Notes: generated by a model not told the origin, from the letters alone. Shown: positions 2,764 to 44,142, counted from the stretch's first letter. The stretch: DNA of 44,142 bases from a virus (IMGVR_UViG_3300009702_000004:1-44142), one strand, 5' to 3'. Numbers and translations are program-made.

Positions 2764-3014
2764 GAGTCTTCCTCGGATTCCGCGAGCTCTACCGCGGTGA
2801 GTCCGGTCTCGACTTTGCGTTCTACTGGTATGGTGGTGAGATCGGCGTTGAAGCCGTTCTGCTGGAGCATCTTACCGATGTGTCCCCGAGAAGTGTCGGT
2901 GATCATCGATTCTCCAGTCTGCATGTATGCTTCGAGATCTCTGAGATAGAGCTCTTCGATTCGGGCGAGCGCAGCGGCATTACGCCGGATGCGCTCCTGT
3001 TCTTTCTGGTTCAT
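2754..3014 (-). CDS. Putative terminase small subunit (gp18-like), 86 aa
   Basis: Sits immediately upstream of terL and overlaps it. I chose the internal ATG at 3014 (MNQKEQERIRR...), which overlaps the stop of the preceding ORF (TAATG). The call rests on synteny only. Confidence 0.5.
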   Translation of the reverse strand: MNQKEQERIRRNAAALARIEELYLRDLEAYMQTGESMITDTSRGHIGKMLQQNGFNADLTTIPVERKVETGLTAVELAESEEDSWL

Positions 3015-3232
3015 TATCTGAGTACCGCCAGAGCTATTGTGAGAAGTAAGGCACCCAAAGCTGCGATCCCTTTTGCCCATGCCCGAGACTGCTTGAGAGA
3101 GTCGATGTCATTCTGTTGAGCCTTCGTATCTCCCTTCATCTCCTTGATGTCTTGCGCCATCAGCATCGTCCTCTCGTCAATTCGTGCTACCGTCGATGCT
3201 ACGGTGTCGTTTGGTGCTATCGGTGCTGTCAT
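3014..3232 (-). CDS. Small membrane protein with a C-terminal TM helix (holin or spanin-class candidate)
   Basis: 72 aa. Hydrophobic tail GIAALGALLLTIALAVL. ATGA overlap with the upstream 1465-aa gene. Occupies the position of T7 gp17.5/18.5. Confidence 0.5.
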   Translation of the reverse strand: MTAPIAPNDTVASTVARIDERTMLMAQDIKEMKGDTKAQQNDIDSLKQSRAWAKGIAALGALLLTIALAVLR

Positions 3233-29926: not shown

Positions 29927-32422
29927 CTAGCTGAAGAAGTAGCGCGAAGTCCGCACCTGTTGAACATTGAAGGTGCCCTTTGGGGGTGGCAATGGGACTT
30001 CCGCCTGTGATGAAAAACTTCGATATAGCAGATCAATCACATCGCGTCCATCATAGAGAGAGATGAACGCTTCCCGAGTCGCCTCTGCCATAGTTGAGGC
30101 GTCACAGGCATGAGTACTGTAGCTGTCGTGAACCATTCCGAAGGCGTCGATACCTCCGCGAGAAGCAAGCACTAGAGTCATCATCATTGCCGCCGCATCC
30201 AATGAATGGATGACATTCGGAGCGATGCTGTTTTTATGCTTGATGCGGAGCGCCTTTTTGGTCTTGCGCCATGTTGAGAGCGTGACAATGGAGCCGCATA
30301 GAATTGTCTGTACACGGTGTCTCTTCATGTTCCAATATTCTTGTCGAGCAGGAAAGCCCGTTACCGGGACTGTCCATTCGACGAAGCCCCGTTCGTCACA
30401 CACAGCGCCCGCGCATTCCGCGAGCCACTCCATGCCGCCGAACGCGGCGACTACTACATCCTCTAGCGCTGTCCAGATAAGACCAGCCAAATATCGGCAT
30501 AGAGGGCCGATATAGGATGATCCGTTGTCCAGTTCAAAGGTGGACTGGTTGATCTCCTGCCAGTTGTCTTCCCCCACGAGCGATTCCTCGATCTGTCGGG
30601 CCATGCCGAAAGTCTTGGACCCGTAGGCAAAGGTCATAGTGGGCCGTTTGAACAAAGACCTGCTCAGGAGTCCACTGTGAAGCCACCACTTAGCTGTATC
30701 CATTCCAGTAGCAGCGTCCCGAGCGACAAGCGTGCGGACTGCAGAGTGGATGGCGTCATATACATCGCGAGGTAGGCTTTCTTCTGTGAGGTTGACTTCC
30801 CGCGCCCCTCTAGGATCGCGCAGCAATGCCGCGAAGTGTTGTAGCCCGTTGCATGTACCATCTTGCGCGATGGGGAGACTACTGCGAAAGCGCTCCCCGT
30901 TCCCCACCGCGTCAGCCTCCATGTAGGCATTCCATTCGATTGCGAACGCAAGAAACTGAAACGGTTTATCGGCTTCAGACCACCATGTGATTCCAGCAGG
31001 ATCTTTCGCCACTGCTCGAATTGCCTCTGTGTTAGCCCTGATCCATTGAGCCCTTTGCTCGAAGGATTCTTTGCTGAATTTGTGTCCATCAAACTCTCCT
31101 AGTGTATTAGCCCCGTGTATAGCAAGCCAAGTAGCACCAGTAGTATTGAGGGGCTTAGAAGCAGAAAAACAAAGAAGCCCACGCTGCAGGTCTGAACCTT
31201 GCGGTTGAAGACCTGAACAGATCGGATAGGCTCTTCCTCGGAAGTCGAGATTATGCGGAAACCAGATTCGATCATATTGAGCAAATTGCTCAGCGAGCTC
31301 GATGGCCGTAAACCATTCGATGAGTCTGCTCGCTCGGAGATTGTTCCGCTCTTTGATTTCCGACGCGGCCCGCTTCCATTCTCTGAGTTGTTTCTGTTGC
31401 TCTTCTGTCTGACGATGGCGCTGTATTCCTTTCTTCATCCACGGATGCTTGGGCGGCATGGGCTCTGGCTCAGCGTCAGGAAGACCGCCAAGAGAGCTTC
31501 CTCTCTCGCGGAGATCCAATACCACGTCGAGCACGCGCTGATTGACCCGCCAAGCGGTGGACTGCATTCTGTTGAGCCCCTCATAGACGAAAGGCATGTC
31601 GACCTGTCGGACCCGAGCGTTGCTGGTCTTGCGAACAAGCGGATATTTGTCACGCAACGCATAGCGATACCCGCCGTTCGTCTCCTGTGTCCACGGCAGC
31701 GGCTCTTCGACCATCGGCAGGGCCTGCGGCCGATGCCACTGCATTATGTCATTGGTGTCTTCGAGGAGCTGCTGTGTCTCTTCAGTGAGAGCGAAGGTCT
31801 TGACCTCAGACCATTTCTGTCCCTTCTTCCTCTTCTTGTTTGTGAGACGACCGATGCCGGTTGTGTCAAGGCACACATTGATCAACTTGAGGCCGAGGAG
31901 CATAGCTTCCCGGTCAGTCAGATTCGCGTCGTCCTCGACCCCTGCGTATCGAGCTGCTTGGTTCAGAGAATGTGCTCTATGCTTGTAGTTGGACGTGTTG
32001 AATTGCCGCATGCGGTATTCAAACAATCCCCGAGCCTCTGTCCGCAGCTTCCGATAGCGTAGCTCGTCATTCAGCAGTCTCGCGATGGTCGGAGCGAGTT
32101 TGGAGATGTTGCTCTCGATGTGAGGATGCCCCAACAGTGTCCTGATGGTGATGTAGGCTGCCACATCCGTGCCGACCAACTGAAGCCACCGGATCAAAGT
32201 GCCATAGCCCCGCCGATCCTTCTTAACGAGTATCTCGTCAAAGGCCTTTTTGGTCGGTGACAATACCTTCTGCAGCAGCTTGCGGGCGGCGCCCTCAGCT
32301 GTCGCATCTCCTTCTTGAGATAACTCTTCGAGTCTCTTCCTGAAGCGGAGAGCCCCGTTGGCCAATGCTGCATCTTCCAGCTCTGTTTGACGCTGGTGCA
32401 TCGCTAAGGAATCATCGTTCAA
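29927..32422 (-). CDS. Single-subunit DNA-directed RNA polymerase (T7 gp1-like)
   Basis: 831 aa with FRGRAYP, DGTCNGLQHFAALLRD and HDSYSTH motifs. TTG start follows AAGGAG by 9 nt. Confidence 0.96.
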   Translation of the reverse strand: MNDDSLAMHQRQTELEDAALANGALRFRKRLEELSQEGDATAEGAARKLLQKVLSPTKKAFDEILVKKDRRGYGTLIRWLQLVGTDVAAYITIRTLLGHPHIESNISKLAPTIARLLNDELRYRKLRTEARGLFEYRMRQFNTSNYKHRAHSLNQAARYAGVEDDANLTDREAMLLGLKLINVCLDTTGIGRLTNKKRKKGQKWSEVKTFALTEETQQLLEDTNDIMQWHRPQALPMVEEPLPWTQETNGGYRYALRDKYPLVRKTSNARVRQVDMPFVYEGLNRMQSTAWRVNQRVLDVVLDLRERGSSLGGLPDAEPEPMPPKHPWMKKGIQRHRQTEEQQKQLREWKRAASEIKERNNLRASRLIEWFTAIELAEQFAQYDRIWFPHNLDFRGRAYPICSGLQPQGSDLQRGLLCFSASKPLNTTGATWLAIHGANTLGEFDGHKFSKESFEQRAQWIRANTEAIRAVAKDPAGITWWSEADKPFQFLAFAIEWNAYMEADAVGNGERFRSSLPIAQDGTCNGLQHFAALLRDPRGAREVNLTEESLPRDVYDAIHSAVRTLVARDAATGMDTAKWWLHSGLLSRSLFKRPTMTFAYGSKTFGMARQIEESLVGEDNWQEINQSTFELDNGSSYIGPLCRYLAGLIWTALEDVVVAAFGGMEWLAECAGAVCDERGFVEWTVPVTGFPARQEYWNMKRHRVQTILCGSIVTLSTWRKTKKALRIKHKNSIAPNVIHSLDAAAMMMTLVLASRGGIDAFGMVHDSYSTHACDASTMAEATREAFISLYDGRDVIDLLYRSFSSQAEVPLPPPKGTFNVQQVRTSRYFFS

Positions 32423-32444: not shown

Positions 32445-32760
32445 GGAGCTGTGTGTCCTCGGGTTACCCCTCAGGTTGCTACCCTATACCCTCCTTGGTT
32501 ACTATCCCCTCATTGGGTTACCCTCAGGTAGCTTCCCTATCTCTCCTACGTACCTCCTTGCGTTACCTCATTGGGTTACTCTCCTTAGGTAAGGAACAAC
32601 AATGAATAACTCTCCTAGGGGTATATACCCAATAGACCTCTTTGCGTACCTCCTTGCGTTACCTCATTGGGGTGCAGGTCATAGAGGATAGACCTCAGGT
32701 GCTCATGGGGAAGACTCCTAAGGTATACCTATATACAGTCTTTTTCTTCTTTTTTTTCTC
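32445..32760 (-). repeat. Array of imperfect direct repeats with Shine-Dalgarno-like cores in the RNAP leader
   Basis: Exact 27-mer cgtacctccttgcgttacctcattggg at 32549-32575 and 32645-32671. Four copies of cctc(att)gggtta. At least eight AGGAG/AAGGAGG cores on the minus strand without start codons. Confidence 0.85.
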
Positions 32761-32828: not shown

Positions 32829-33155
32829 CTAGAAGCGCACTTGTACGCTGCGTCGGGCGGTCGCTTCGTGGTCGGGCGGCAGGGCATCCATCAGGGCTGC
32901 GATATACCTGACCAGCCGTCCCTTGGCTTTGATCATCCTGCCGTAGGCGTCCCCTGTATAGGACACCGCCCCGTCTCTTCCGTCGCTCACTTCTCTGAGC
33001 GCCACCTCAAAGTCCGCGGAGGTCTCCATCAGCTCATCAACGAGGGTCATTGCTTTCGGTGTCACCCGGATCACTGGAAAAAATTTCCCCTTATCCCCCC
33101 CTCGATTGCGCTTAGGAGGTTCTGGCAGGAATGGTCCATCTGATAGGATTGACAA
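32829..33155 (-). CDS. Hypothetical early protein, paralogue of 37885..38106
   Basis: TLVDELMETSADFEVALREV...GRLVRYIAAL aligns with TLIDELIRTSANLKMRLREA...TRVMDYIEAL. TTG start. Confidence 0.6.
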   Translation of the reverse strand: MSILSDGPFLPEPPKRNRGGDKGKFFPVIRVTPKAMTLVDELMETSADFEVALREVSDGRDGAVSYTGDAYGRMIKAKGRLVRYIAALMDALPPDHEATARRSVQVRF

Positions 33156-33183
33156 GATGTGTCGCCTTTCTGTGTGTTTGTGA

Positions 33184-33263
33184 TGGAGGCGCAGGGAATC
33201 GAACCCTGGTCCGGGCAGCTCGCCACTGTTGGGTCTTTGCTCCCGTCAAACCCATTCGCCCCC
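33184..33263 (-). ncRNA. Minimal tmRNA-like RNA (tRNA-like domain only)
   Basis: Acceptor helix GGGGGCG/CGCCUCC with G3:U70. T-arm CAGGG-UUCGAUU-CCCUG. The 5' string GGGGGCGAAUGGGUUUGACGGGA resembles the tmRNA 5' end. No D-stem or anticodon arm. It fills a 119-nt intergenic gap. Confidence 0.65.
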
Positions 33264-33274
33264 TTCTTTTTTTC

Positions 33275-33433
33275 CTATCCTTCTCTTCTTTCAAGCTCTG
33301 TTATGATCGCTATGGATTCTTCTCTTTCGATTCCTCCTCGGTTTCTCTGCGCCAGCTTGATGAGACGTTCTTGGAGCCACTCGTTCGGCCAGTTCTCGAA
33401 GCCTGTCGGTTGCTCATTATCATCAGGATGCAT
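33275..33433 (-). CDS. Possible small ORF, 52 aa
   Basis: The ATG overlaps the end of the upstream ORF. Below the track threshold. Confidence 0.4.
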   Translation of the reverse strand: MHPDDNEQPTGFENWPNEWLQERLIKLAQRNRGGIEREESIAIITELERREG

Positions 33434-33695
33434 CTTTCAGCATCTTTCTGAGCTCTGCTTTGATTCGTCTTGCGTCTGCTCCTCTGAAGTGTGCTGCGTT
33501 TCCGAGGAATCGATACAGGATTCCGACTGCGCTGTCGTAGCCATAGTAGTCATTGACTGTGTTCAATTCTTGCATGGCTCTCAGATAGGGCTCTGCCGCG
33601 AAATTTACCTTTGGGCGCCCGTTCTTGTCAACCCACTTCTGTCTGATCTCTCTGGCTATTGTTGAGATCGGCCGCTGTTCCGGTGGTGATGTCAT
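33423..33695 (-). CDS. Hypothetical early protein, 90 aa
   Basis: ATGA overlap with the upstream ORF. Confidence 0.6.
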   Translation of the reverse strand: MTSPPEQRPISTIAREIRQKWVDKNGRPKVNFAAEPYLRAMQELNTVNDYYGYDSAVGILYRFLGNAAHFRGADARRIKAELRKMLKDAS

Positions 33696-33934
33696 TTTCG
33701 TTTTGTCTCCTTTTTCTTTCGTAGTCTGGTGACTTCTGTCTTTCCTGATAGATTGATCCGTCCTGTGTAGTTTCCTGAGATTTCTTCTTTGTCATCATCC
33801 GGTCTGTTCGGCGTGTCGAGTTTCACTGTTACTCCGCTGAGTGTCGAGAATTTGATTGTTCCCTTCAGCCACGGACAGTTGGTTACTCGAAACCTTGCTT
33901 CCTCACACTTCTCCGCCAACTTCCTTAGGAACAT
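33692..33934 (-). CDS. Hypothetical early protein, 80 aa
   Basis: ATG 6 nt after GAGGAG. Basic C-terminus. Confidence 0.6.
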   Translation of the reverse strand: MFLRKLAEKCEEARFRVTNCPWLKGTIKFSTLSGVTVKLDTPNRPDDDKEEISGNYTGRINLSGKTEVTRLRKKKETKRK

Positions 33935-34130
33935 TCGATTCTCCTCTGTAGGCTGCGAGGTTGAGTCCCCAATGCCTTTTCAGCTCTCCGAGTTCATCAT
34001 CTACTGCGAGGATGTTGTCGTACCAGCCGGTGAGTATCTCACCATCGATTGGGTCTATGGCACAGTACATCATGTTGTCGTCGGAGTCCTCGAAGTCCAT
34101 CTTGAGTCTGCACAGCTCTGCTATGAGCAT
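33903..34130 (-). CDS. Hypothetical early protein, 75 aa, acidic
   Basis: Compact ORF in the early operon. Confidence 0.5.
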   Translation of the reverse strand: MLIAELCRLKMDFEDSDDNMMYCAIDPIDGEILTGWYDNILAVDDELGELKRHWGLNLAAYRGESNVPKEVGGEV

Positions 34131-34132
34131 TT

Positions 34133-34312
34133 TCAGATCCTCATCTTTCTTGATTGCGCTCTTTTGCGCTTTTCTGCCACGCGGTGGGCTCTGGCATATA
34201 GGATGCCTTTTTGGCCCCGCTTTGGTCGGAGGCCTCTCTTATCGAGGAGGCTTTTGAGTAGTTTCTGCAGATTGTAATCGCTGATGCTCTGCAGGAGTGC
34301 GATTGTGCTCAT
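34133..34312 (-). CDS. Possible small basic protein, 59 aa
   Basis: Fills the gap between two ORFs exactly (stop, 2 nt, next ATG). K/R-rich. One codon below the track threshold. Confidence 0.45.
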   Translation of the reverse strand: MSTIALLQSISDYNLQKLLKSLLDKRGLRPKRGQKGILYARAHRVAEKRKRAQSRKMRI

Positions 34313-34316
34313 CGGT

Positions 34317-34607
34317 TTATATCATCCCTTCTATGTCGAAGTCTTCGATCATGTCTTTGATCTCTGTCAGCAGCTCTGCTGTATTTTCTGTTTCTTGCAG
34401 AGCTGATTCGACATCGCTCATCATGTTGCTCATCGTCTCTTCGATTTCAGTTTGAATCTTCTGCTTCACTTCATCTCGGATTTCGTCTTCGATTTCTTCT
34501 TTGATGCTATCTCGAAACTGATCTTCCAGTTCTGACGGAAGTTTGCTGATGTCGTAGAGTTCTCTGATGGTTTCTGTGTTTACGTCTGCTAAGTAGTAGC
34601 GTGACAT
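34317..34607 (-). CDS. Highly acidic early protein, 96 aa (DNA-mimic candidate)
   Basis: About one third of residues are D or E (EIEDEIRDEVKQKIQTEIEE...). Confidence 0.6.
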   Translation of the reverse strand: MSRYYLADVNTETIRELYDISKLPSELEDQFRDSIKEEIEDEIRDEVKQKIQTEIEETMSNMMSDVESALQETENTAELLTEIKDMIEDFDIEGMI

Positions 34608-34611
34608 GGAG

Positions 34612-35187
34612 TTACGTGCTCCTTATCTGCAACCAAATGGTCGCTTGGAATTGGGCGACGGACTGTCCGACCATCTTTGAGGCCACTTCGAGGGCCTTTG
34701 TGATGCGCCCATATTGTTTCTGTGTTGGTGCTATCTTCTTGCTGTTTCGTCCGTTCACAATTCGCATGATCCATCGATCTATGACTGCTGCACTCATGTC
34801 TCCTGTGAGTGCTAGCGCGAAGGCATTGACTTTCGGGCCTTTTAGCGCATCTAGTTCTCCTCTGAGACATGCTTTCGCCTTATCTATTGGGTCTTTCATT
34901 CCTACGGCGTTATTGCCGTTGGCGAGTTGTCGCACTACTTCGATGTTTCTGCTCCATTGCATTTGGTTGCTCAGTGCTGCGACGGCATATGCAATGTTGT
35001 GGAACGGCTTGTTTAGTTCTTCGGCCAGTTCTCTGATGTCATGCTGTGCTTCCCAATACCACATGGTGCCTTCTCCTACTTGTTCTGCTGTTGCTCGTCT
35101 CCAGCTCGCTAGGAACTTGTTGACGTAGCCGAGGTTTAGCGGTGCTCGCTTTCCCCGCTCGATGGCTTTCTTGTCGTATTTTGGCAC
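34612..35187 (-). CDS. Hypothetical early protein, 191 aa
   Basis: Largest early ORF. No motif I can name. Confidence 0.65.
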   Translation of the reverse strand: MPKYDKKAIERGKRAPLNLGYVNKFLASWRRATAEQVGEGTMWYWEAQHDIRELAEELNKPFHNIAYAVAALSNQMQWSRNIEVVRQLANGNNAVGMKDPIDKAKACLRGELDALKGPKVNAFALALTGDMSAAVIDRWIMRIVNGRNSKKIAPTQKQYGRITKALEVASKMVGQSVAQFQATIWLQIRST

Positions 35188-35193
35188 TTATCG

Positions 35194-35448
35194 TTAGCCA
35201 TCCAGTTCAGCATAGAATTCATCGCGCTCTGCAGTTGTGTCGAATCTGCAGTCGTCTTCTGGGTCGTCGTCGGGCTCTTCTTCGTCGAAGACTCCGTAGG
35301 CGACCGCCCATTGATAGAGGGATTCGTCGTTCTTGATCCAGTCTTCTCGGTCTTTGTCGTCGAGGCTGAAGTTTGGTTCATTCAGCGCTTCTCGAATTAT
35401 TTTATCGAGTTCTCCTCGATTCTTGTCGAGGAATTGTTGTAAGGTCAT
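35194..35448 (-). CDS. Hypothetical early protein, 84 aa
   Basis: I chose ATG 35448, 8 nt after AGGAGG. The longer GTG start in the track lacks an RBS. Confidence 0.55.
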   Translation of the reverse strand: MTLQQFLDKNRGELDKIIREALNEPNFSLDDKDREDWIKNDESLYQWAVAYGVFDEEEPDDDPEDDCRFDTTAERDEFYAELDG

Positions 35449-35540
35449 CTGCTGCAGCCTCCTAGATCTCTGCAATGTTCCCATGAAATTATCACAATGC
35501 CGTAGATGATGATCGCCCATTGTATTGCGATCAAGAACAT
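35445..35540 (-). CDS. Possible 31-aa hydrophobic peptide
   Basis: MFLIAIQWAIIIYGIVIISWEH... Its TGA overlaps the next ATG (ATGA). Confidence 0.3.
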   Translation of the reverse strand: MFLIAIQWAIIIYGIVIISWEHCRDLGGCSR

Positions 35541-35575
35541 TGTGATCTTTCAGTTGTGCCACCAGCTCTTCATCT

Positions 35576-35812
35576 CTATTTCTTGATGATCTTTATCCAG
35601 TTGGTTTTGTGTTGCTTGAGGGTGAGGCTTTTGTCTGACGATATTCCTGCGTCGTGCAGAGCATCGAAGATTTTGATTGTTGCGCTATGCCCATACATGT
35701 GTCCTATGATTCTTTGTAGGACTCTTGCGGTTTCTATGGACATTTTCAGATGGACAGTCTTTTCGATTCTTTGTTCGATTCTTGCTTCACATCTTTCTTT
35801 GATAGGCACCAT
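35576..35812 (-). CDS. Hypothetical early protein, paralogue of 36401..36646
   Basis: MSIETARVLQRIIGHMYG...DALHDAGI aligns with LSVENAQVLRQIMQHIGG...VALSEAGI. Confidence 0.55.
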   Translation of the reverse strand: MVPIKERCEARIEQRIEKTVHLKMSIETARVLQRIIGHMYGHSATIKIFDALHDAGISSDKSLTLKQHKTNWIKIIKK

Positions 35813-35833
35813 CTGTTGTTGTTCTCCTTTCTT

Positions 35834-36385
35834 TTAGTAGTCGTAGAGCGTTGCTGGGCTTCCAAAATCGAAACAGTAGAGTTCTCCGTTGTAGGTTCCT
35901 ACATTTCCGATGTGGATGTCCTCGAAGGCCATTTGCTCGAATTGATTTCTCCACTTCTTGTTATCTTTCCAAAACTCTTCTACTTCTTCTCTGTTTGCGC
36001 TGTAGGCTAGGTCTAGGGGTTCTACTGTGAGTTGCAGGCAGCCTGTCTGGCCAACTCTAACCGTCGGTACGCAGTATTTCTGCAGGCCATAGTCTTTCAT
36101 TTTCTTGTATAGCTCTGCCTCGTCTACTGCGTTTTCTCCGAGCTTCAGCGTCCACTGTTTGTTGATGAACACTATTGGCTTGCAGATTCCTTCTTTTGCG
36201 GTTTTGGCTTGGAAGGCTTTTCGCATTTCTTTGATCAGCCTTTTTATCTCTACATCCTTTGATATTCTCCAGTGTATGTCCGTGTCAGCCAGCATCTTGA
36301 ATTTGGTTCTCCAGCCGCTATTGAGATGCTTGGCTATTTTCTTCAGCCTTTTGATGATCTCTTTTCTCTCTGTCTCGGCCATCAT
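35834..36385 (-). CDS. Early protein with a kinase-like catalytic segment (possible gp0.7 analogue)
   Basis: FEDIHIGNVGTYNGELYCFDFG resembles the HxGN...DFG catalytic/Mg loop of atypical kinases. This is a weak call. Confidence 0.35.
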   Translation of the reverse strand: MMAETERKEIIKRLKKIAKHLNSGWRTKFKMLADTDIHWRISKDVEIKRLIKEMRKAFQAKTAKEGICKPIVFINKQWTLKLGENAVDEAELYKKMKDYGLQKYCVPTVRVGQTGCLQLTVEPLDLAYSANREEVEEFWKDNKKWRNQFEQMAFEDIHIGNVGTYNGELYCFDFGSPATLYDY

Positions 36386-36400
36386 GATGATTCTCTCGTA

Positions 36401-36646
36401 TTAGAGGTCTGAGAAGTAGATTGAGCCGCTGAATTCTGTCAGCTTCTTGGTCGCGATCTCGATTCCTGCCTCACTTAGTGCTACGTCGAGTTCTCCTATC
36501 ATTCCTCTTGCCGTTGTTCTTGGGCTTCCTCCAATGTGTTGCATGATCTGTCTCAGCACTTGTGCGTTTTCTACTGAGAGTTCTACTATCACGCGTCCTT
36601 CTGCTATTACCACTGGTTCGGTGATTCTTGCTGTTGGCTTTGACAT
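36401..36646 (-). CDS. Hypothetical early protein, paralogue of 35576..35812
   Basis: See 35576..35812. Confidence 0.55.
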   Translation of the reverse strand: MSKPTARITEPVVIAEGRVIVELSVENAQVLRQIMQHIGGSPRTTARGMIGELDVALSEAGIEIATKKLTEFSGSIYFSDL

Positions 36647-36669
36647 TAGGTTTGGTTTCTCTCTTTCTT

Positions 36670-36912
36670 TTATTTCTTTTGGGCGATTGTGATCGTGACG
36701 ACACCGTTTCGGAATTTCTTTCCGAAGTGTCGTTCAAAATCCTTTGGACAGAATTCGAAGAGGACTTCGTTTGTCTTGTAGTCTCTGAGTCTGTAGTTTG
36801 TTGCTTCTGGCGGCTCGTTTCTTACTTGGTCGCAGATGCTGCAGCCGCGGTCCATGCACAGCTCATCGTGTGTCGTTCTGATGCTTAGCCGGAATCGTCG
36901 CGTTTTCTTCAT
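36670..36912 (-). CDS. Hypothetical early protein, 80 aa
   Basis: Compact ORF containing a CxxC pair. Confidence 0.5.
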   Translation of the reverse strand: MKKTRRFRLSIRTTHDELCMDRGCSICDQVRNEPPEATNYRLRDYKTNEVLFEFCPKDFERHFGKKFRNGVVTITIAQKK

Positions 36913-36918
36913 CTTGTG

Positions 36919-37239
36919 CTATTCTCCTGTGAGCAGATTGACTCCGCAGTAGTTACATGTTGCGGAATCTGAGCAAGAATGTGCTCTAATCTCAGTTTGT
37001 ATCAGATGTTCGGCGACGCCTCGGAATTTGTGTTGGAGCTCTCCGTTGCATTGATCGCAGAAGGATAGCCCCCAATCATTCCAATGTGCGCCCACGATCT
37101 GTTCAAGTGGGTGTTTGTTTCTGCACTCACTTGAGCAGAATCCGGGTCTTGCTGGGCTTCGTGGTCCTTCTGCCTCCATGCGGAAGTCTTTTCCACATGA
37201 TAGGCAGAAGAACTCTACGTCGCTTGTTCTGATGATCAC
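36919..37239 (-). CDS. Cysteine-rich zinc-finger-like early protein
   Basis: CLSCG, CSSEC, CDQCNG and CNYCG pairs. Confidence 0.55.
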   Translation of the reverse strand: MIIRTSDVEFFCLSCGKDFRMEAEGPRSPARPGFCSSECRNKHPLEQIVGAHWNDWGLSFCDQCNGELQHKFRGVAEHLIQTEIRAHSCSDSATCNYCGVNLLTGE

Positions 37240-37640
37240 TCTGCTGATGCTTCCGCGTAGTCAGCAGCATCAGGCTTCTCTTCCTGCTGCTGCTCTTGCG
37301 GGCTTCCTACGCCATCAAGCATGGTGATCTCGGAGGCCACGATCTCGGTCGTGTACCGAGTGTTGTTCTCCTTGTCCGTCCACTTGCGGTATTGGAGGCG
37401 GCCCTCTACGTAGACCTTGGAGCCCTTCTTCAGGTACTTCTCCGCGATCTCTGCCAGTCCGCGCCACACGACGACCCGATGCCACTCGGTCTTCGTGATC
37501 TTGTCGCCCGCGGCGCTCTTGTAGGTGAAGTTTGTTGCCACTGACAGCGTGGCTACGCTGTCGCCGTTGTTGGTCATGTTGATCTCGGGGTGCATTCCGA
37601 GGTTACCGATGAGCATGACTTTGTTGAGTCCACGAGACAT
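37236..37640 (-). CDS. ssb: Bacterial-type OB-fold single-stranded DNA-binding protein
   Basis: LNKVMLIGNLG...TEWHRVVVWRGLAE...VYVEGRLQYRKW is a canonical SSB core. The C-terminus lacks the usual DDDIPF tip. Confidence 0.9.
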   Translation of the reverse strand: MSRGLNKVMLIGNLGMHPEINMTNNGDSVATLSVATNFTYKSAAGDKITKTEWHRVVVWRGLAEIAEKYLKKGSKVYVEGRLQYRKWTDKENNTRYTTEIVASEITMLDGVGSPQEQQQEEKPDAADYAEASAE

Positions 37641-37644
37641 GATA

Positions 37645-37878
37645 TTATTCCTTTTCGTTATCGCTCAGACGTAGCGATTGGTTGATGAGCATGCTTGTGG
37701 CGATGTTGCCCAAGTTGCTCAGATGGTCACTTAGCATTGAGTGGCGGTCTTCGGCTTCGTTGCCGCCTCTGCTCTGCTCTATTGCGTCGTTTGCATGACG
37801 CTGTACTGCTGTCAGGCCTTCGATGACTTCTGTCAAGAGCCTGACGTCTTCGAGGAAGCCTCTGGTCGTGTCTAGCAT
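37645..37878 (-). CDS. Hypothetical early protein, 77 aa
   Basis: Compact ORF. Confidence 0.5.
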   Translation of the reverse strand: MLDTTRGFLEDVRLLTEVIEGLTAVQRHANDAIEQSRGGNEAEDRHSMLSDHLSNLGNIATSMLINQSLRLSDNEKE

Positions 37879-37884
37879 GATGGT

Positions 37885-38106
37885 TTAGCTCTCCTCTGTT
37901 AGGGCTTCGATGTAGTCCATCACCCGCGTCTTCGCTTGGGCCGCTTGGATGTAGGCGGTTGCTGCGCGTTCGAACCTGCCTTCTTCTACGCGGTCATCCT
38001 TTGCTTCTCTGAGCCTCATCTTCAAGTTGGCTGACGTTCTTATCAGCTCATCAATGAGGGTATTTCCATCTACTGGTGGGCACGAGATGTAGGTGCTTTT
38101 CATCAT
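37885..38106 (-). CDS. Hypothetical early protein, paralogue of 32829..33155
   Basis: See 32829..33155. Confidence 0.55.
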   Translation of the reverse strand: MMKSTYISCPPVDGNTLIDELIRTSANLKMRLREAKDDRVEEGRFERAATAYIQAAQAKTRVMDYIEALTEES

Positions 38107-38111
38107 TTTGG

Positions 38112-38486
38112 CTATCTCCTATCTGTGTGGTGGTACTGGTGAACATAGACTTTGAGCCCGGAGGCCGTGGCCAGGTTTATCATGTGTTTCGTTCCGCGGC
38201 TCTTTCCATCCCAAATTGCGATGAGTGCGTCGGCATATTTTGCCATTTTCGCGTTTCGCTTGTAGCCTGCACTTCTTCCGAAGCGTTCCCATTGAGCAGG
38301 GAATCTCTTGATCGGTATGCCGTAGAACTTGGCCAGTTGTTCGCCTATTTGGTCAACGCCGCGAGCACATCCTGACACTATTTCTGTGATGTGAATGCTG
38401 TGAGGTGGTAGGTCGGCTATGTTCATGGCGTCTTGTACAGTCTTGTTGTCGTTGATGTTTCGAGAACCTGCAATGATTGTCTTCAT
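38112..38486 (-). CDS. SLOG/DUF2493-like Rossmann-fold protein, first gene of the early block
   Basis: MKTIIAGSR...IVSGCARGVDQIGE...YKRNAKMAKYADALIAIWDGKSRGT pattern. RBS GAGGAG. Confidence 0.55.
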   Translation of the reverse strand: MKTIIAGSRNINDNKTVQDAMNIADLPPHSIHITEIVSGCARGVDQIGEQLAKFYGIPIKRFPAQWERFGRSAGYKRNAKMAKYADALIAIWDGKSRGTKHMINLATASGLKVYVHQYHHTDRR

Positions 38487-38519
38487 GAGCTGGCTATCTC
38501 CTCGGTGCGGGTGGTGATA

Positions 38520-38624
38520 ATGCCTCGACGGGACTCGAACCCGTTACGTTTGACCGACTCAAGGCACATCAGCTGGGAGCGCCCAACTGACTATTACTGG
38601 TGCTGCATCCCCATACTCGGGGCA
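38520..38624 (-). ncRNA. tRNA-like element (T-arm plus acceptor helix, no anticodon arm)
   Basis: ACGGG-UUCGAGU-CCCGU followed by CGAGGCA. That pairs 6 of 7 with UGCCCCG 97 nt upstream. An internal 8-bp hairpin CAGUUGGG-CGCU-CCCAGCUG is present. The element ends 33 nt before the first early gene. Confidence 0.4.
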
Positions 38625-39584
38625 GGTATATGCATCGTGATCTAGTGGTCTTCTTCAGGTCGGAGGTTCGCTCTTTATCGCGCTCTACTACCGATGAATG
38701 GGGCGCCACACCCAATCTCCCAACCTGTCTCTCCCGGTCATCTGCTACTTCTGATGTCCGGCACCGCCCTGAGTACGAGAGGGCACGACATGACCTAACC
38801 ACTCGCTGCTGCTTGGGGATCAAAGGTCTCCACAAGATACCAGTGCCGAGCTTCGCTACAAGGCCAAGATGCCTCATTCCTCGTTCGCCTCATCAGAGGG
38901 CGTCTATGGTTCGGGCGCTGTACTCAGGGGTCCAACACTCACTGAGCCCTAGCCTGACGGGGTGCCCCGCCGTCTCCCTAGTCGCCAGTGCTGCTCGCGT
39001 AGTGCCTCCGACGACAGCATAAGGTCAGCGAAGGAGGCGCATAGGAGCGTAGCGACGATTAGCGCTGACTGGTCCTCCAGAGCGAAGCGCAAGGGTCTGC
39101 CCAGAGGGCCGAGGAGCGTAGCGACGAGCCCTTGCGTGTAGCGAAGAGGGCGCTACCGTTGTGCTGTCTAGGGGGCACCCAGCGAGCCACGTCGGCGGCG
39201 CAGGGTTAAGACGTCGAGGGCACCCCGATGCTAGGAATGCTCCGGGACGTGGACCTAGAGGACAGTGTTCGGACCATGGTCGATGCCGAGGCGGGCGTGG
39301 AGTGTGACATTGGCGCTCCGAAGCTCGGTCATCGATTGTGGAGGCCCGCACAAGCGAAGCGATGGACTTGGACGGTCGCTCCTCATTAGGTGTCTGCTGT
39401 ATGCTGCGCCGCCCCGCGCACGTAGGGGCCACACCGAAGGTGTGTCATAGATGCCACCGCACGCTGTTATGCGGTAGGCATCATGATGCTCGTGGGTATT
39501 GAAAAAGACCGATCCTTCGTGCAACTATGTGCATCTCAAGAAGCGCTGTGTGCCATCGGCTTGGTCGGGCAAAAGGAGGGCCCG
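38625..39584. ncRNA. Candidate large structured non-coding RNA (class and strand unresolved)
   Basis: About 1 kb with only junk ORFs on both strands. GC is visibly higher than in the flanks. It contains many local GC-rich helices and internal repeats. Confidence 0.4.
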
Positions 39585-39636
39585 CCGAGGTCACCAAAGG
39601 AGACACCCCAAGTGTCTCCTTTTGGGGACACCTCGG
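39585..39636. terminator. Long imperfect hairpin with a bidirectional intrinsic-terminator appearance
   Basis: AAAGGAGACAC-CCCAA-GTGTCTCCTTT (39596-39622) is flanked by CCGAGG/CCTCGG. It is followed by TTTT on the plus strand and TTTGG on the minus strand. Confidence 0.5.
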
Positions 39637-39748
39637 GAACCGTATGGTGGCCCTCGGCCGGAACCGGATGCGGTGGTAGTGGGGCCGCGCCGGGAGGCTC
39701 CGAAGGAGCCCCCCGGGGGGGACCGCCCGAGCGACAGCGAGGGGGGGG

Positions 39749-39866
39749 AGGCGCTCGGGTCTGACCCAAAAAATTCGAGTGGAGGCGCGCTCGGGTCTGA
39801 TGACCCAAAAAATTCGAGTGGTGGAATACCATCGTCGGAATGCCTCCTGTGTGACCCAAAAAATTC
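39749..39866. repeat. Three direct repeats containing GACCCAAAAAATTC
   Basis: Copies start at 39763, 39802 and 39853. The first two extend to about 34-39 nt (aggcgc(gc)tcgggtctga(tg)cccaaaaaattcgagtgg). Confidence 0.9.
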
Positions 39867-39978
39867 CGGCGAGGCGCTGTACGCCCTCCTAAGGCCCGAC
39901 CCCAAATAAAAGGGCCTGGGAGTCGTACATCATACCGTTTGCGGCCCCTGCTCGGGCTGGAGTGGGCCCGTGTCCGTT

Positions 39979-40545
39979 TTATCGGATGCCAAGGACGGCT
40001 ATGTACGCCGAATGCGTCATAGCAAGCCCAAAAGCGGATGTGACGTGCCAGAGGCCGTGATTGACCCACTTTCGGATGCCCAAAGCCGCCACGAGGGCCA
40101 AGGTGGCCCATGAGAGGCTCATGAGGGGGGCCGGATAGAGGCTGACTACCGAGATCCCCGAACAAAACCCGAAGAGGAGAGGCGGAATGCCAAGAAATGC
40201 CACCTTGTGCTCCATCTTCATGTGTTGGAGCTTACGGCTCACTCGAAGCCGCCATCCGAGGGGTACAGCCGTGATGGGGGCGAAGATGAGGGGGAAGCCG
40301 AATACCAGCAGACCGAGATAGAGGAGGACGGCATAGATCATCCCCACATCCCAGCTGTTGCCGTTTCTGCCCCCGGCGTGGTAGTAGGCGGAGGTGAGGC
40401 CAAGGCCGGTCATCATTCCCGCCCACAGCGGGTCTCCGGAAAGGAGGCCCACCGCGGGATAGGCGAGACTGGTCAGGACTTCCCACCGGAGGAAATGCTT
40501 AGCGGGGGGAAACGTCACCACGATCCGTCTCCTCGTCGTCCCCAA
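39979..40545 (-). CDS. Multi-pass membrane protein (weak ceramidase/PAQR-like His motifs)
   Basis: About five hydrophobic helices, with YYHAG...SWDVGMIY and GLWHVTSAFG. The start is uncertain because the 5' end overlaps the upstream gene. Confidence 0.55.
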   Translation of the reverse strand: MGTTRRRIVVTFPPAKHFLRWEVLTSLAYPAVGLLSGDPLWAGMMTGLGLTSAYYHAGGRNGNSWDVGMIYAVLLYLGLLVFGFPLIFAPITAVPLGWRLRVSRKLQHMKMEHKVAFLGIPPLLFGFCSGISVVSLYPAPLMSLSWATLALVAALGIRKWVNHGLWHVTSAFGLAMTHSAYIAVLGIR

Positions 40546-40801
40546 GGCCGAGCTGGCGAAGGAAATCGAGAGACATGATGTCCTCCGGGGCTACGCCCTT
40601 CGGCAGAGTCAGAACTACGCCCTCTTTCAGGAACCCACTGATCTTGCCGGCAGCGTCGAGCGCTATGGCGCCATTGCGGGCCGCCTGAGCGACGGTGTGG
40701 CGATAGTTGGTTCTGATCTCGGCGCCCATGGGGGTCCGGGTCACGGCATAGTATGCGACTTCGGTGGTCTTGCCCGACTGAGCGGGGGTAGCATCAGCCA
40801 T
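40499..40801 (-). CDS. Hypothetical protein, 100 aa
   Basis: I chose ATG 40801, preceded by AAGGAAGG. Confidence 0.55.
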   Translation of the reverse strand: MADATPAQSGKTTEVAYYAVTRTPMGAEIRTNYRHTVAQAARNGAIALDAAGKISGFLKEGVVLTLPKGVAPEDIMSLDFLRQLGLGDDEETDRGDVSPR

Positions 40802-40926
40802 TTTTGGTCCCTTCCTTTTCTTGTGATACGGCGCATTCATTGCACCAGATGAGTTGAAGACGCCCGATCTTGCGGACGTGGCATTTCTTACACAGCATAT
40901 GCTCCGGCACTGTCGTCGGTTTACTG

Positions 40927-41199
40927 CTACCCTTCGAGGTCACGGAGCCATCCGGGGCGGTCGTCTTTCTTACCTGGGTCGGCCCCGGCGGTCGCCGATT
41001 CGACCCAGCCCACCAGATAGGCCATCATATGAGATTCAGCAAACTGTAGGGCATGACTCCTCAGCTCTACCTCGCTCGCCTCTGGCATCCGCACGCGGAG
41101 GAGAGTGAGGAAGTTGGCCACGCTTGGAGTTGATTCCCATCTCTGATAGAGAGAGATCAAGGCTCCCGGGGTGGGATCGTGTTCGATATTGCTACCCAT
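40927..41199 (-). CDS. Hypothetical protein, 90 aa
   Basis: The internal ATG 41199 overlaps the upstream stop (ATGGGTAG). Confidence 0.5.
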   Translation of the reverse strand: MGSNIEHDPTPGALISLYQRWESTPSVANFLTLLRVRMPEASEVELRSHALQFAESHMMAYLVGWVESATAGADPGKKDDRPGWLRDLEG

Positions 41200-41488
41200 C
41201 GATCTTTTTTCCCTCCTTCTCTTCTTTCCACCGGCGCCGACAGTCTGGCCGATCACAGGGGCACAGGTCGGGCCGATTGCAGCCGAAGCTGCGGTAGTAG
41301 GATTCATCAAACTGCATTTTGTTTCCCATGGGCCGCGGGGTGTCGCCTTTGCCGCTATTCTGCTGCTGCCGCGCCATGGCTCTCTTAGACGACCGAGAGA
41401 TCGGCATCCCGAGATGAGCCGCGACCTCTTCTTTGGAGAAATCGACTACCGGCCTCCCGCTGGACGGATCTGTGTATTTTTGGGGCAT
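41192..41488 (-). CDS. Hypothetical protein, 98 aa, with a Cys cluster
   Basis: Carries CNRPDLCPCDRPDC. Basic. Confidence 0.5.
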   Translation of the reverse strand: MPQKYTDPSSGRPVVDFSKEEVAAHLGMPISRSSKRAMARQQQNSGKGDTPRPMGNKMQFDESYYRSFGCNRPDLCPCDRPDCRRRWKEEKEGKKIDG

Positions 41489-41510
41489 ATTGCCGCAAAA
41501 TCCTTCCTTT

Positions 41511-42032
41511 TTAGGCTATTAGAGCCCGTATGGTGGGAATTTTCAAACTGAAATTGCTGAACCAAACCTGTTCGACGGCAACGCCGAAGTCCTGAGTCTG
41601 TTCATCAGCCAGTCGGGCGAGCTCCCGGAGAAAGTTGCGGCGTCTGGCGACGGTCTCGAAGCGATCTATGTCTACCTCAGCCAGTCGCTCCGCGAGGACG
41701 GCCTCCAGGATCTCTGTCATGCTCTCTTCATAATCGTCAACTTTGAAGAGAGCCGCGGTGGCGTCGATTACTTGCACCCAAGCGCTGGCCTCGAAGTTGA
41801 GGGTCGTCCCATCTTTCAGAGTGATGTCTTGGCGTGAACCAACGATCACGAATGGCACTGTGGTCACAGGGAGCACGTCTCCCAATATCGGGCAGACGAG
41901 ATAGATCCCGGGCCCTTTCTCTTTCCGCGGTCTGTTGAACCACGTCCTGATGCCGGTCTCCCAGCCTTGGACGTGCCTGACCGGGAACAATTCTGTCATT
42001 ATGTCTACCAGAAACTCCCATAATACACCCAT
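41511..42032 (-). CDS. SPFH/Band-7 (stomatin-prohibitin) domain protein
   Basis: VRHVQGWETGIRTWFNRP...GPGIYLVCPILGDVLPVTTVP...DITLKDGTTLNFEASAWVQVID follows the SPFH pattern. Confidence 0.55.
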   Translation of the reverse strand: MGVLWEFLVDIMTELFPVRHVQGWETGIRTWFNRPRKEKGPGIYLVCPILGDVLPVTTVPFVIVGSRQDITLKDGTTLNFEASAWVQVIDATAALFKVDDYEESMTEILEAVLAERLAEVDIDRFETVARRRNFLRELARLADEQTQDFGVAVEQVWFSNFSLKIPTIRALIA

Positions 42033-42083
42033 TTCTAATTGTTCTCCTTCGTGGTGGATTTGCGTTGATTTTGAATACTAGAG

Positions 42084-42156
42084 CTGGGACACAGGGGGTC
42101 GAACCCCGAACCTTCCGGGTAACAGCCGGACGCTCTGCCAGTTGAGCTACATCCCA
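42084..42156 (-). tRNA. tRNA-Asn (anticodon GTT)
   Basis: I folded it by hand. Acceptor UGGGAUG/UGUCCCA, D-arm GCUC-AACUGGCA-GAGC, anticodon arm UCCGG-CUGUUAC-CCGGA, T-arm CGGGG-UUCGACC-CCCUG. CCA is not encoded. Confidence 0.9.
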
Positions 42157-42174
42157 TCGTTGTTGTGAATACAG

Positions 42175-42215
42175 CCTATAGCTTGTAGACATGTGAGTTT
42201 GCAACAAGCTATAGG
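42175..42215. repeat. Perfect 12-bp inverted repeat with a 17-nt spacer
   Basis: CCTATAGCTTGT ... ACAAGCTATAGG, between the stop of the 149-aa gene and the tRNA. Confidence 0.9.
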
Positions 42216-42238
42216 TTGTATTTACACAGCAGCGCCTA

Positions 42239-42688
42239 CTAGGCGTCCCAAACGGCGACGAGACCCTCGGTGCCGTCTTCCTTCTGGACCCGCATCCAGC
42301 CGCTTGAGGCGGCGGTCATTCCAGCAGGGCCGTTCGCTGAGAGCGAGGCGGCTACGGCGCCATTGGCGGGCTGCGCAGAGGCCTTGCCGAGAATCTCGGG
42401 TAGAGCCACTTCGAGCCACCGTCCGTTGTTGACATCACCGACTGCGGCGAGCATCTTGGACTGACCGCGCCGCACAGTGGCGACTCTGCGGCCAAACACG
42501 TCCACCAACTCCACATCGCCATCGGCGTTGGCCTCGACGGATACGGCGTAGCCTTCGGCCACGGTCGCACCAGTGCCATCATCGACGGCGGGCAGGAACG
42601 CTTTGACCTTGAAGGCCAGTGCTGAGGTCACTACGGTGTCCGTGTTGGCGATCTGTTCGCCATCCGCGGCCAATACTTTCAGAGCCAT
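42239..42688 (-). CDS. Hypothetical virion-associated protein, 149 aa, sharing a C-terminal motif with the tail fibre
   Basis: The C-terminus GWMRVQKEDGTEGLVAVWDA parallels the fibre C-terminus QWVEIDINGVAHWIPVWT. Confidence 0.6.
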   Translation of the reverse strand: MALKVLAADGEQIANTDTVVTSALAFKVKAFLPAVDDGTGATVAEGYAVSVEANADGDVELVDVFGRRVATVRRGQSKMLAAVGDVNNGRWLEVALPEILGKASAQPANGAVAASLSANGPAGMTAASSGWMRVQKEDGTEGLVAVWDA

Positions 42689-43682: not shown

Positions 43683-44142
43683 TTATGTCCACACTGGAAT
43701 CCAGTGTGCAACGCCGTTGATGTCGATCTCCACCCACTGTGCCTGTGCGGCAACAGTTGGGCCGGAGCCTCCGATTGTTCCCAGCGTGGCGGCTGCGCCC
43801 GCGCCGAGGGCTATTCCCCTATTGATGTCCAAACGGCCATTCACAACTACATCACCGCCAAAGATACTTCCTGCTGTTCCTGTGTGGTTGATAAAGGTAC
43901 CGTTGTTCATTGCAGAGTTGATTCCGCGGATAGTGGTCGGTCCTGAGATATTCGCTATATCAATTCCATTGAAGGTGCCAATAGTTCCGCCAGCCGTCAG
44001 AGTCACCGCTTTTACAGCGAAGATACTAGCAGTCGTAATAGAAGCAGACCCCACTGTGGCGTCTACTGACAAGGAGCCATAGAATAACTCTACGCTAGTC
44101 TGCGTGATTGAACCGCCATTTATATTCGGACCCCACTTTGGC
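43683..44142 (-). CDS. Tail-fibre-like protein, 3' part (same gene as 1..926; nt 44020-44142 duplicate nt 1-123)
   Basis: In frame with the open minus frame of 1..926. The start at 44072 in the track is an internal TTG. Confidence 0.75.
   Translation of the reverse strand, partial: PKWGPNINGGSITQTSVELFYGSLSVDATVGSASITTASIFAVKAVTLTAGGTIGTFNGIDIANISGPTTIRGINSAMNNGTFINHTGTAGSIFGGDVVVNGRLDINRGIALGAGAAATLGTIGGSGPTVAAQAQWVEIDINGVAHWIPVWT
44020..44142. repeat. Second copy of the 123-nt terminal overlap
   Basis: Identical to nt 1-123. Confidence 0.97.

Follow-up and report, generated by a model that had tools for sequence, protein, structure and literature searches.

A giant strand-asymmetric hairpin at the late/early gene junction of a T7-like phage and of a metagenomic relative

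What occupies the gene-free junction between the late and the early genes of the phage genome IMGVR_UViG_3300009702_000004:1-44142, and does it act as RNA or as DNA? T7-like phages are among the best understood viruses, with terminal non-coding regions regarded as the seat of repeats, promoters and packaging signals and of nothing else. The stretch analysed here, 44,142 nucleotides (nt) in length and called the window, is the genome of a T7-like podovirus; every long open reading frame (ORF) lies on its minus strand, referred to below as the sense strand. An earlier reading of this DNA, the original prediction, had singled out 1,065 nt of the junction (38520-39584) as a hairpin-dense block, rich in guanine plus cytosine (GC) and devoid of a credible coding sequence, and had proposed a large structured RNA. 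Both the lack of a coding sequence and the elevated GC content (0.59-0.63 versus 0.42-0.55 in the early genes) are confirmed; the gap is in fact larger than had been stated (Table 1), and its ORFs have no Pfam or PHROG match. The supposed many independent local helices, however, proved to be one giant imperfect hairpin at 38779-39384, hereafter the rod. This element is exceptional in its fold, has been kept with compensatory changes in a second phage lineage, differs between the strands and lies outside the known RNA families.

In the minimum-free-energy fold the rod has arms of about 250 nt and a tip formed by a three-way junction. Its gene-proximal (5') arm pairs with the gene-distal (3') arm, 176 of 222 positions being complementary, with many short indels in between. 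The first branch of the tip is a hairpin (39032-39070); the second is a conserved helix, GCGCAAGGG/CCCTTGCG (39087-39096/39128-39137), that bears two small hairpins. A 16-nt direct repeat, AGGAGCGTAGCGACGA, occurs twice within the tip (39043 and 39112). The GGGUGCCC-type long-range complementarities that had been noticed before (38958-38967/39218-39227 and 39002-39009/39171-39178) are real and belong to this one structure, as does the GCAAGGG/CCCUUGC helix. Two further helices on the same list, at 38956-38974 and 39138-39156, are alternatives, in place of which the minimum-free-energy fold uses long-range pairs.

The folding energy of the region is far beyond chance. Over the 1,065 nt of the original prediction the z-score against shuffled sequences is -7.4 on the plus and -2.9 on the minus strand. 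The 606-nt core reaches -321.1 kcal/mol on the plus strand (shuffles -255.2±6.3, z -10.4) and -271.1 kcal/mol on the minus strand (z -7.3), its centroid structure is close to the minimum-free-energy fold, and with DNA parameters the corresponding z-scores are -6.0 and -4.9. When the whole genome was scanned in 600-nt segments and GC content was regressed out, the plus-strand rod was the strongest outlier (residual -58.7 kcal/mol), whereas the minus-strand rod fell outside the top 8. Mini-hairpin motifs of the type GCGNAGC are only mildly enriched. The genome contains neither further copies of the conserved arm blocks described below nor a repeated phage-promoter motif.

The SLOG protein of the window led us to L039 (ENA ERZ27250004), a related phage from a metagenome whose sequence also occurs in two JGI contigs (L041/L045 and L049). 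Its proteins are 62-79% identical to those of the window, and the same place in its genome is occupied by a gap of 1704 nt without genes. Within this gap, at the same position, lies a rod of 753 nt (L039 2585-3337) that is longer and better paired: its arms are 88% complementary, contain perfect helices of up to 30 base pairs (bp) and end in a three-way tip. The strand opposite the genes folds with -510.5 kcal/mol (z -32) and the sense strand with -453.7 kcal/mol (z -24). Nucleotide identity between the two rods is highest in the proximal arm, amounts to 80% in the tip and is lowest in the distal arm (Table 1). The proximal arm, with the blocks GAGAGGSCACGACATG, GCTGCTTGG, CAAGATGCC, GGCGTYTATGGTTCGGGCGC, TCCCTAGTCG and CCGACGACA, gives the sole BLAST match between the two intergenic regions. 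It is under sequence constraint beyond pairing, which may be because an early promoter or leader overlaps it on the other strand. In the window a predicted outer helix encloses the rod together with local hairpins (38575-38777 and 39389-39544), and outer helices of a similar kind are predicted in L039. A hairpin of 600-750 nt that is conserved and strand-asymmetric falls outside the accepted picture of T7-like genome ends; it is unexpected also since long inverted repeats are normally unstable.

To compare the pairing of the two rods, each arm was aligned separately by sequence, because RNAalifold on a MAFFT alignment, in which the distal arm was misaligned, returned only fragments of the rod. 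Among the 149 pairs of the window fold compared with L039, 102 are identical, 14 carry a one-sided change that still pairs, 10 are compensatory and 23 are broken. In 5000 permutations, in which the changes of the distal arm were randomly reassigned among the pairs, 2.8±1.5 compensatory pairs were obtained and none of the runs reached 10; likewise, 126 pairs were kept compared with 109.9±2.6 in the permutations. The excess of compensatory pairs indicates that complementarity has been maintained since the two phages split. The rod of L049 adds no information, as it differs from that of L039 at a single unpaired base.

These data bear on the view that the rod is a functionless inverted duplication, tolerated in non-coding DNA and kept recognisable by occasional gene conversion. 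Just two lineages with a rod are known, the internal loops are not conserved between them, the window rod is shorter and more decayed than its counterpart (79% versus 88% arm complementarity), and the outer 5' arm has been retained while its partner was lost, all of which speaks for this view. Even so, the rod has kept its site although the proteins of the two phages are only 62-79% identical, its nucleotide identity of 73-81% is as high as that of the coding genes, and long inverted repeats are normally selected against. The significant excess of compensatory pairs and the strand asymmetry, consistent in both lineages and unexpected under neutral decay, also disagree with it, and we judge this explanation rather unlikely.

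Which strand folds is indicated by several asymmetries. The plus strand is more stable than the minus strand by 50-57 kcal/mol in both phages. Read on the plus strand, G·U oppositions between the arms outnumber A·C oppositions by 14:6 in the window and by 15:3 in L039 (p 0.0075). The unpaired bases of the plus-strand fold comprise 40-47% A versus 18-19% U, and its 1x1 mismatches are mainly purine-purine. Together with the genome scan, these observations favour the plus strand, antisense to all genes and their template, as the strand that folds, in place of the minus strand on which the original prediction had seen its helices.

If the plus strand has been selected to fold, a non-coding RNA is therefore its most likely product. 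We propose, tentatively and with somewhat less than even confidence, that the rod is a leftward, rod-shaped non-coding RNA. Such a transcript would be about 0.9-1.1 kilobases (kb) long and would run away from the early genes to the left end of the genome, in the direction known from the T7 promoter A0. Its 5' and 3' ends would pair and close a long rod resembling double-stranded RNA, which might owe its function to the duplex shape instead of an ornate tertiary fold, serving for example as substrate or decoy of a host double-stranded RNA-binding protein such as RNase III. Leftward transcription has a precedent, since the T7 record annotates the leftward Escherichia coli promoter A0 in the equivalent region. 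In L039 the strand opposite the genes carries two good leftward promoter candidates, a TATAAT and an extended -10 element (TGgTACAAT, with TAAACA 18 nt upstream), aimed into the rod, and the predicted start is about 2 nt before the outermost helix. A phage RNA of this kind, large, non-coding and with a very simple architecture close to a duplex, would represent a new class, and would point to an interplay with host double-stranded RNA-binding factors at the very start of infection.

Several observations weigh against this proposal. No promoter-like site was found on the plus strand of the window; its sole promoter-like candidate, a weak TGgTATCTT at 38839, is on the sense strand inside the proximal arm. 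The hairpin that follows the rod is succeeded by only four U on the plus strand, and in its conserved form it fits the sense strand better. The substitutions since the phages split show a weak excess of G·U over A·C (10-11 versus 7). Correlated change of the arms by itself does not tell whether a folded strand was under selection or a DNA inverted repeat underwent gene conversion. The internal loops differ between the two rods, and the perfect helices of up to 30 bp in L039 are expected RNase III targets and resemble a generic duplex more than a typical structured RNA. Finally, a rod is recoverable in two lineages only, both uncultured. The signals that could distinguish RNA from DNA are, in sum, mixed.

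In the main rival reading, possible though doubtful, the rod would act as DNA: a long inverted repeat at the genome end that forms a hairpin when the plus strand is single-stranded. This strand is the template of the early genes and has its 3' end at the left genome end; it could become single-stranded as an unreplicated 3' tail or after 5'-3' resection by a phage exonuclease during concatemer formation. Such a hairpin could have a part in replication, in packaging or in duplicating the terminal repeat, or could, like Frpo in the leading regions of plasmids, rebuild a duplex promoter on single-stranded DNA; a role of this kind would bear on the replication, packaging or first expression of these genome ends. 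The late/early junction is where T7-like genome ends lie, both strands fold far beyond shuffled sequences even with DNA parameters, and the strand that folds better is the early-gene template. The more conserved proximal arm is situated where promoters would be expected, some 300-430 nt ahead of the first early gene, the contigs of relatives break just past the last late gene, and the perfect stretches of 23-30 bp in L039 fit concerted evolution of a DNA repeat. Against this, the hairpin does not lie at a mapped terminus, such a structure is missing from T7 and Mesorhizobium phage Lo5R7ANS, the strand asymmetry is greater with RNA than with DNA parameters, and no rationale in DNA is known for the A-rich unpaired bases and the purine-purine mismatches.

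A close model for a DNA role is provided by the single-stranded DNA promoters (Frpo, ssi) of conjugative-plasmid leading regions (Masai & Arai 1997; PMC11541004), hairpins of 50-350 nt with -35/-10 hexamers in the stem (PMC11541004). Like these, the plus-strand rod is a long, imperfectly paired hairpin formed by the strand that serves as template for the first-expressed genes, tolerates G·T-type wobble on that strand, and is located just upstream of early genes that include SSB, as in Frpo-driven leading regions (PMC11541004). Unlike them, it has no sigma-70-like -35/-10 pair in the distal arm or stem, and with 606 nt (753 nt in L039) it is 2-3 times longer. Moreover, plasmids enter the cell as single-stranded DNA, whereas podoviruses of this type are expected to deliver double-stranded DNA. 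We regard it as highly improbable that a giant hairpin on the template strand, transiently single-stranded at the leading genome end, acts in the manner of Frpo, either by starting the expression of SLOG, SSB and other first early genes while the DNA is still incompletely duplex or by priming DNA synthesis at the end. If true, it would mean a plasmid-type leading-region strategy in a double-stranded DNA podovirus.

The sense strand offers another explanation, namely a functional RNA that would form a highly structured 5' leader, or would insulate the early genes from late transcripts that read through, and that would be cut by RNase III and, at a tRNA-like minihelix, by RNase P or Z, to release early mRNA. 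T7 early RNA is cut by RNase III upstream of gene 0.3, and the sense strand of the rod also folds significantly (z -7.3). The minihelix stands on this strand directly before the first gene (Table 1); the original prediction had ended its block in a tRNA-like element, which amounts to an acceptor/T-arm minihelix only. It scores 20.7 bits (E 0.41) with the mascRNA-menRNA model, below the gathering threshold of 42.5, was matched neither by ARAGORN nor by the tRNA model RF00005, and has no counterpart that we could find in L039. Another feature in favour of the sense strand is the long hairpin just upstream of the rod in the sense direction, which is followed by UUUUGGGG on the plus strand and by UUUGGUGA on the sense strand. 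L039 has a GC-rich hairpin and UUUGGUAG at the equivalent place of its sense strand, so that a hairpin plus UUUGGU on this strand is common to both phages. The plus-strand terminator claimed earlier at 39596-39623 corresponds to this hairpin; it is absent from the list of a terminator scan. The only promoter-like site of the window is on the sense strand, but a transcript starting at 38839 would not contain the rod, because the site is inside the proximal arm. As the asymmetries in energy, G·U oppositions and unpaired bases all favour the opposite strand, and the minus-strand rod is no outlier in the genome scan, a functional sense-strand RNA appears unlikely.

We next considered known large RNAs. 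The approximate size of 1 kb, the phage context, the tRNA-like element and a nearby tRNA gene are reminiscent of GOLLD and ROOL, which are likewise large (>0.5 kb) non-coding phage elements with tRNA-like sequences nearby and without an assigned function. In Rfam searches, however, the whole window gave no relevant match at gathering thresholds; at E<=10 the region 38300-40200, searched on both strands, yielded noise and the sub-threshold minihelix only. The L039 region gave none at E<=5, and its whole locus a tRNA only at gathering thresholds. Models of transfer-messenger RNA (tmRNA), RNase P, 6S RNA, group I and II introns and self-cleaving ribozymes found no match within 38300-40200. Since the predicted fold consists of one rod that ends in a three-way tip, in place of the many junctions and pseudoknots of a multi-domain RNA, it is barely credible that the element is a GOLLD/ROOL-type ornate RNA or another known large RNA (HEARO, OLE, raiA, 6S, RNase P, tmRNA, group I/II intron). 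What does survive of the original prediction is a large non-coding element (about 0.6-1.1 kb) with conserved structure, and its suggestion of a new class is tenable because nothing in Rfam matches.

In shape, the rod has more in common with viroids, Obelisks, 6S RNA and long hairpin RNAs, with which it shares an imperfect, unbranched duplex of several hundred nucleotides, A- or purine-rich internal loops and paired 5' and 3' ends. Viroids and Obelisks, autonomous circular RNAs that have no DNA stage and carry ribozymes or the Oblin ORF, differ in that the present element is encoded by a DNA phage at a fixed syntenic site in the DNA assemblies of two lineages. There is also no ribozyme or 6S match and no conserved ORF here, the internal loops are not conserved between the lineages, and no sign of circularity was seen. 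A description of such an element was not found in the literature.

Compared with T7, the position of the junction is ordinary. The match of the primase/helicase, the gene order, the T7-type terminase domain and the location of all genes on one strand put it where an end region of T7 type is located, in the position of the T7 left end, with the last late gene on one side and the first early gene on the other; a stretch of 1.3-1.5 kb without genes is common to both phages (about 1.3 kb in T7 itself) and usual for a T7-like phage. The rod is not. T7 has 924 nt before gene 0.3, with the promoters A0-A3, the terminal repeat and phiOL. This region is AT-rich, with a GC content of 0.44, and is unstructured (z -1.5/-1.3), as opposed to 0.62 and a dominant 606-nt hairpin (z -10) in the window, where nothing like the promoter array A1-A3 was recognised. 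Taken together, the left ends of T7 (924 nt) and of Mesorhizobium phage Lo5R7ANS (1117 nt) have z-scores from -1.5 to +1.6. MW202733.1, the sole record of the phage collection that shares Band_7, has no comparable gap; its self-comparison revealed no long inverted repeat, in a screen that misses the rod of the window too. The rod is hence no generic property of T7-like end regions. Genome ends and host promoters had been named as a possible full account of the region, and half of this holds: the position at such a junction explains the absence of genes but does not explain the rod.

The junction probably carries genome-end signals in addition. Three direct repeats beyond the long hairpin (Table 1) occur at this spot only in the genome, and their sense-strand reading, CCACTCGAATTTTTTGGGTCA, resembles CCCACTCGATTTTTGAGGTGA of L039; by sequence they are a candidate signal of a genome end or concatemer junction. 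In the late-side spacer of L039, a hairpin-containing repeat, GGGCAGCAGTTGGCTGCCACGCTGTC, is present twice (2229-2255 and 2318-2344) inside a longer local inverted repeat (L039 2251-2394); it has no counterpart in the window.

Further rods were sought in several collections. A blastn search of the region against 50,697 phage records returned no match. The neighbourhoods of SLOG genes in IMG/VR (36 loci) belong to unrelated phages and show no similarity, the other SLOG matches (P0003, P0005, P0020, P0025 and P0094) are not syntenic, and searches of IMG/VR with the RNA polymerase and with a Band_7 alignment indicated that the clade is absent there. A DNA pattern made of two conserved blocks had 0 matches in IMG/VR and 9 in the JGI metagenomes, 2 of them true and both of the L039 type. 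A pattern for the apex helix was too generic, all of its 17 matches in IMG/VR and at least 120 in GTDB genomes being due to chance. BLAST self-comparison misses the rod of the window and is consequently unusable for screening other phages. At least a dozen relatives exist whose contigs end before the rod, among them Band_7 relatives with 73-79% identity and relatives of the membrane protein. Two such contigs, L054 (SDBT01172437.1) and L056 (SDBT01117078.1), end 32 nt and 181 nt past the membrane-protein homologue, at the start of the equivalent junction; these assembly breaks may be due to the inverted repeat or to a physical genome end.

Table 1. Features of the late/early junction (window coordinates; + plus strand, - minus strand)
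Feature	Position	Strand	Details
Non-coding junction, whole	38487-39978	none	From ORF list and gene calls; L039 counterpart is the gap 1822-3525
SLOG/YAcAr gene, first early gene	38112-38486	-	From gene calls
tRNA-like minihelix	38521-38566	- (sense)	7-bp acceptor stem and consensus T-arm GGGTTCGAGTCCC; 34 nt upstream of the first early gene
Outer closing helix (predicted), 5' half	38548-38573	+	Minimum-free-energy fold of 38487-39660
Rod, gene-proximal (5') arm	38779-39031	+	Most sequence-conserved part; 80.6% identical to L039
Rod, tip (three-way junction)	39032-39151	+	From the fold; same tip in L039
Rod, gene-distal (3') arm	39152-39384	+	79% complementary to the 5' arm; 73% identical to L039
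Outer closing helix (predicted), 3' half	39545-39570	+	Minimum-free-energy fold of 38487-39660
Long hairpin	39576-39655	both	Core GGAGACAC/GTGTCTCC (39599-39619); minimum-free-energy fold
Three direct repeats	39751-39875	none	TGACCCAAAAAATTC at 39762, 39801 and 39852; first two copies preceded by GCGCTCGGGTCTGA
Membrane-protein gene, last late-side gene	39979-40521	-	L039 homologue 1321-1821

Three other readings were tried and rejected. A protein-coding reading is ruled out by the lack of Pfam and PHROG matches and by indels of 1 nt that put the ORFs out of frame relative to their L039 homologue. An assembly artefact is ruled out by the imperfect arms and by three independent assemblies, JGI, ENA (MEGAHIT) and Logan, which are identical in sequence and each break at a different point. 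The ENA assembly comprises 44,160 nt and the Logan assembly 44,029 nt, the latter ending at window position 39780, inside the triple repeat. As to a remnant of attP, no integrase is present among the Pfam-annotated called genes of 34112-42486, the rest of the window being unchecked for one.

The genome was assembled as a circle. Positions 1-123 recur at 44020-44142; by this identity of its ends the assembly is either circularised or terminally redundant, with a unit length of 44,019 nt. The primase/helicase shares about 44% identity with its counterparts in Autographiviridae of Bordetella, Rhizobium and Ralstonia, and the terminase contains the T7-type RNase-H-like domain. By its position and size, as in the related phage MW202733.1, an ORF of 831 amino acids at 29927-32422 probably encodes the single-subunit RNA polymerase. 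Just upstream of it, a perfect 27-nt direct repeat, CGTACCTCCTTGCGTTACCTCATTGGG (on the plus strand), is found at 32549-32575 and 32645-32671, 96 nt apart, which may be a duplicated regulatory or ribosome-binding region.

The early-gene block (33000-38500) has a low GC content of 0.42-0.50 and a very strong AT skew of -0.35 to -0.43 on the plus strand, corresponding to A-rich mRNAs, a composition in sharp contrast to the GC-rich junction and the remaining genome. A 58-nt direct repeat of 76% identity (32990-33047 and 38004-38061) in the early region may point to small early genes that are paralogues. A tRNA-Asn (GTT) is encoded at 42083-42156 on the minus strand, within the group of genes that follows the terminase, and is adjoined by a 63-nt imperfect palindrome (42164-42226) that is 76% self-complementary. 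At 33181-33263 on the minus strand, 83 nt match the tmRNA model with 61.3 bits (gathering threshold 47, E 1e-21). This element holds the tRNA-like domain only, with 26 nt replacing 316 model positions that include the tag reading frame and the pseudoknots; it has a G3·U acceptor pair, the identity element of alanine, and the 3' end CCAUCA. The early region of L039 contains an ordinary tRNA (L039 9869-9940) in its place.

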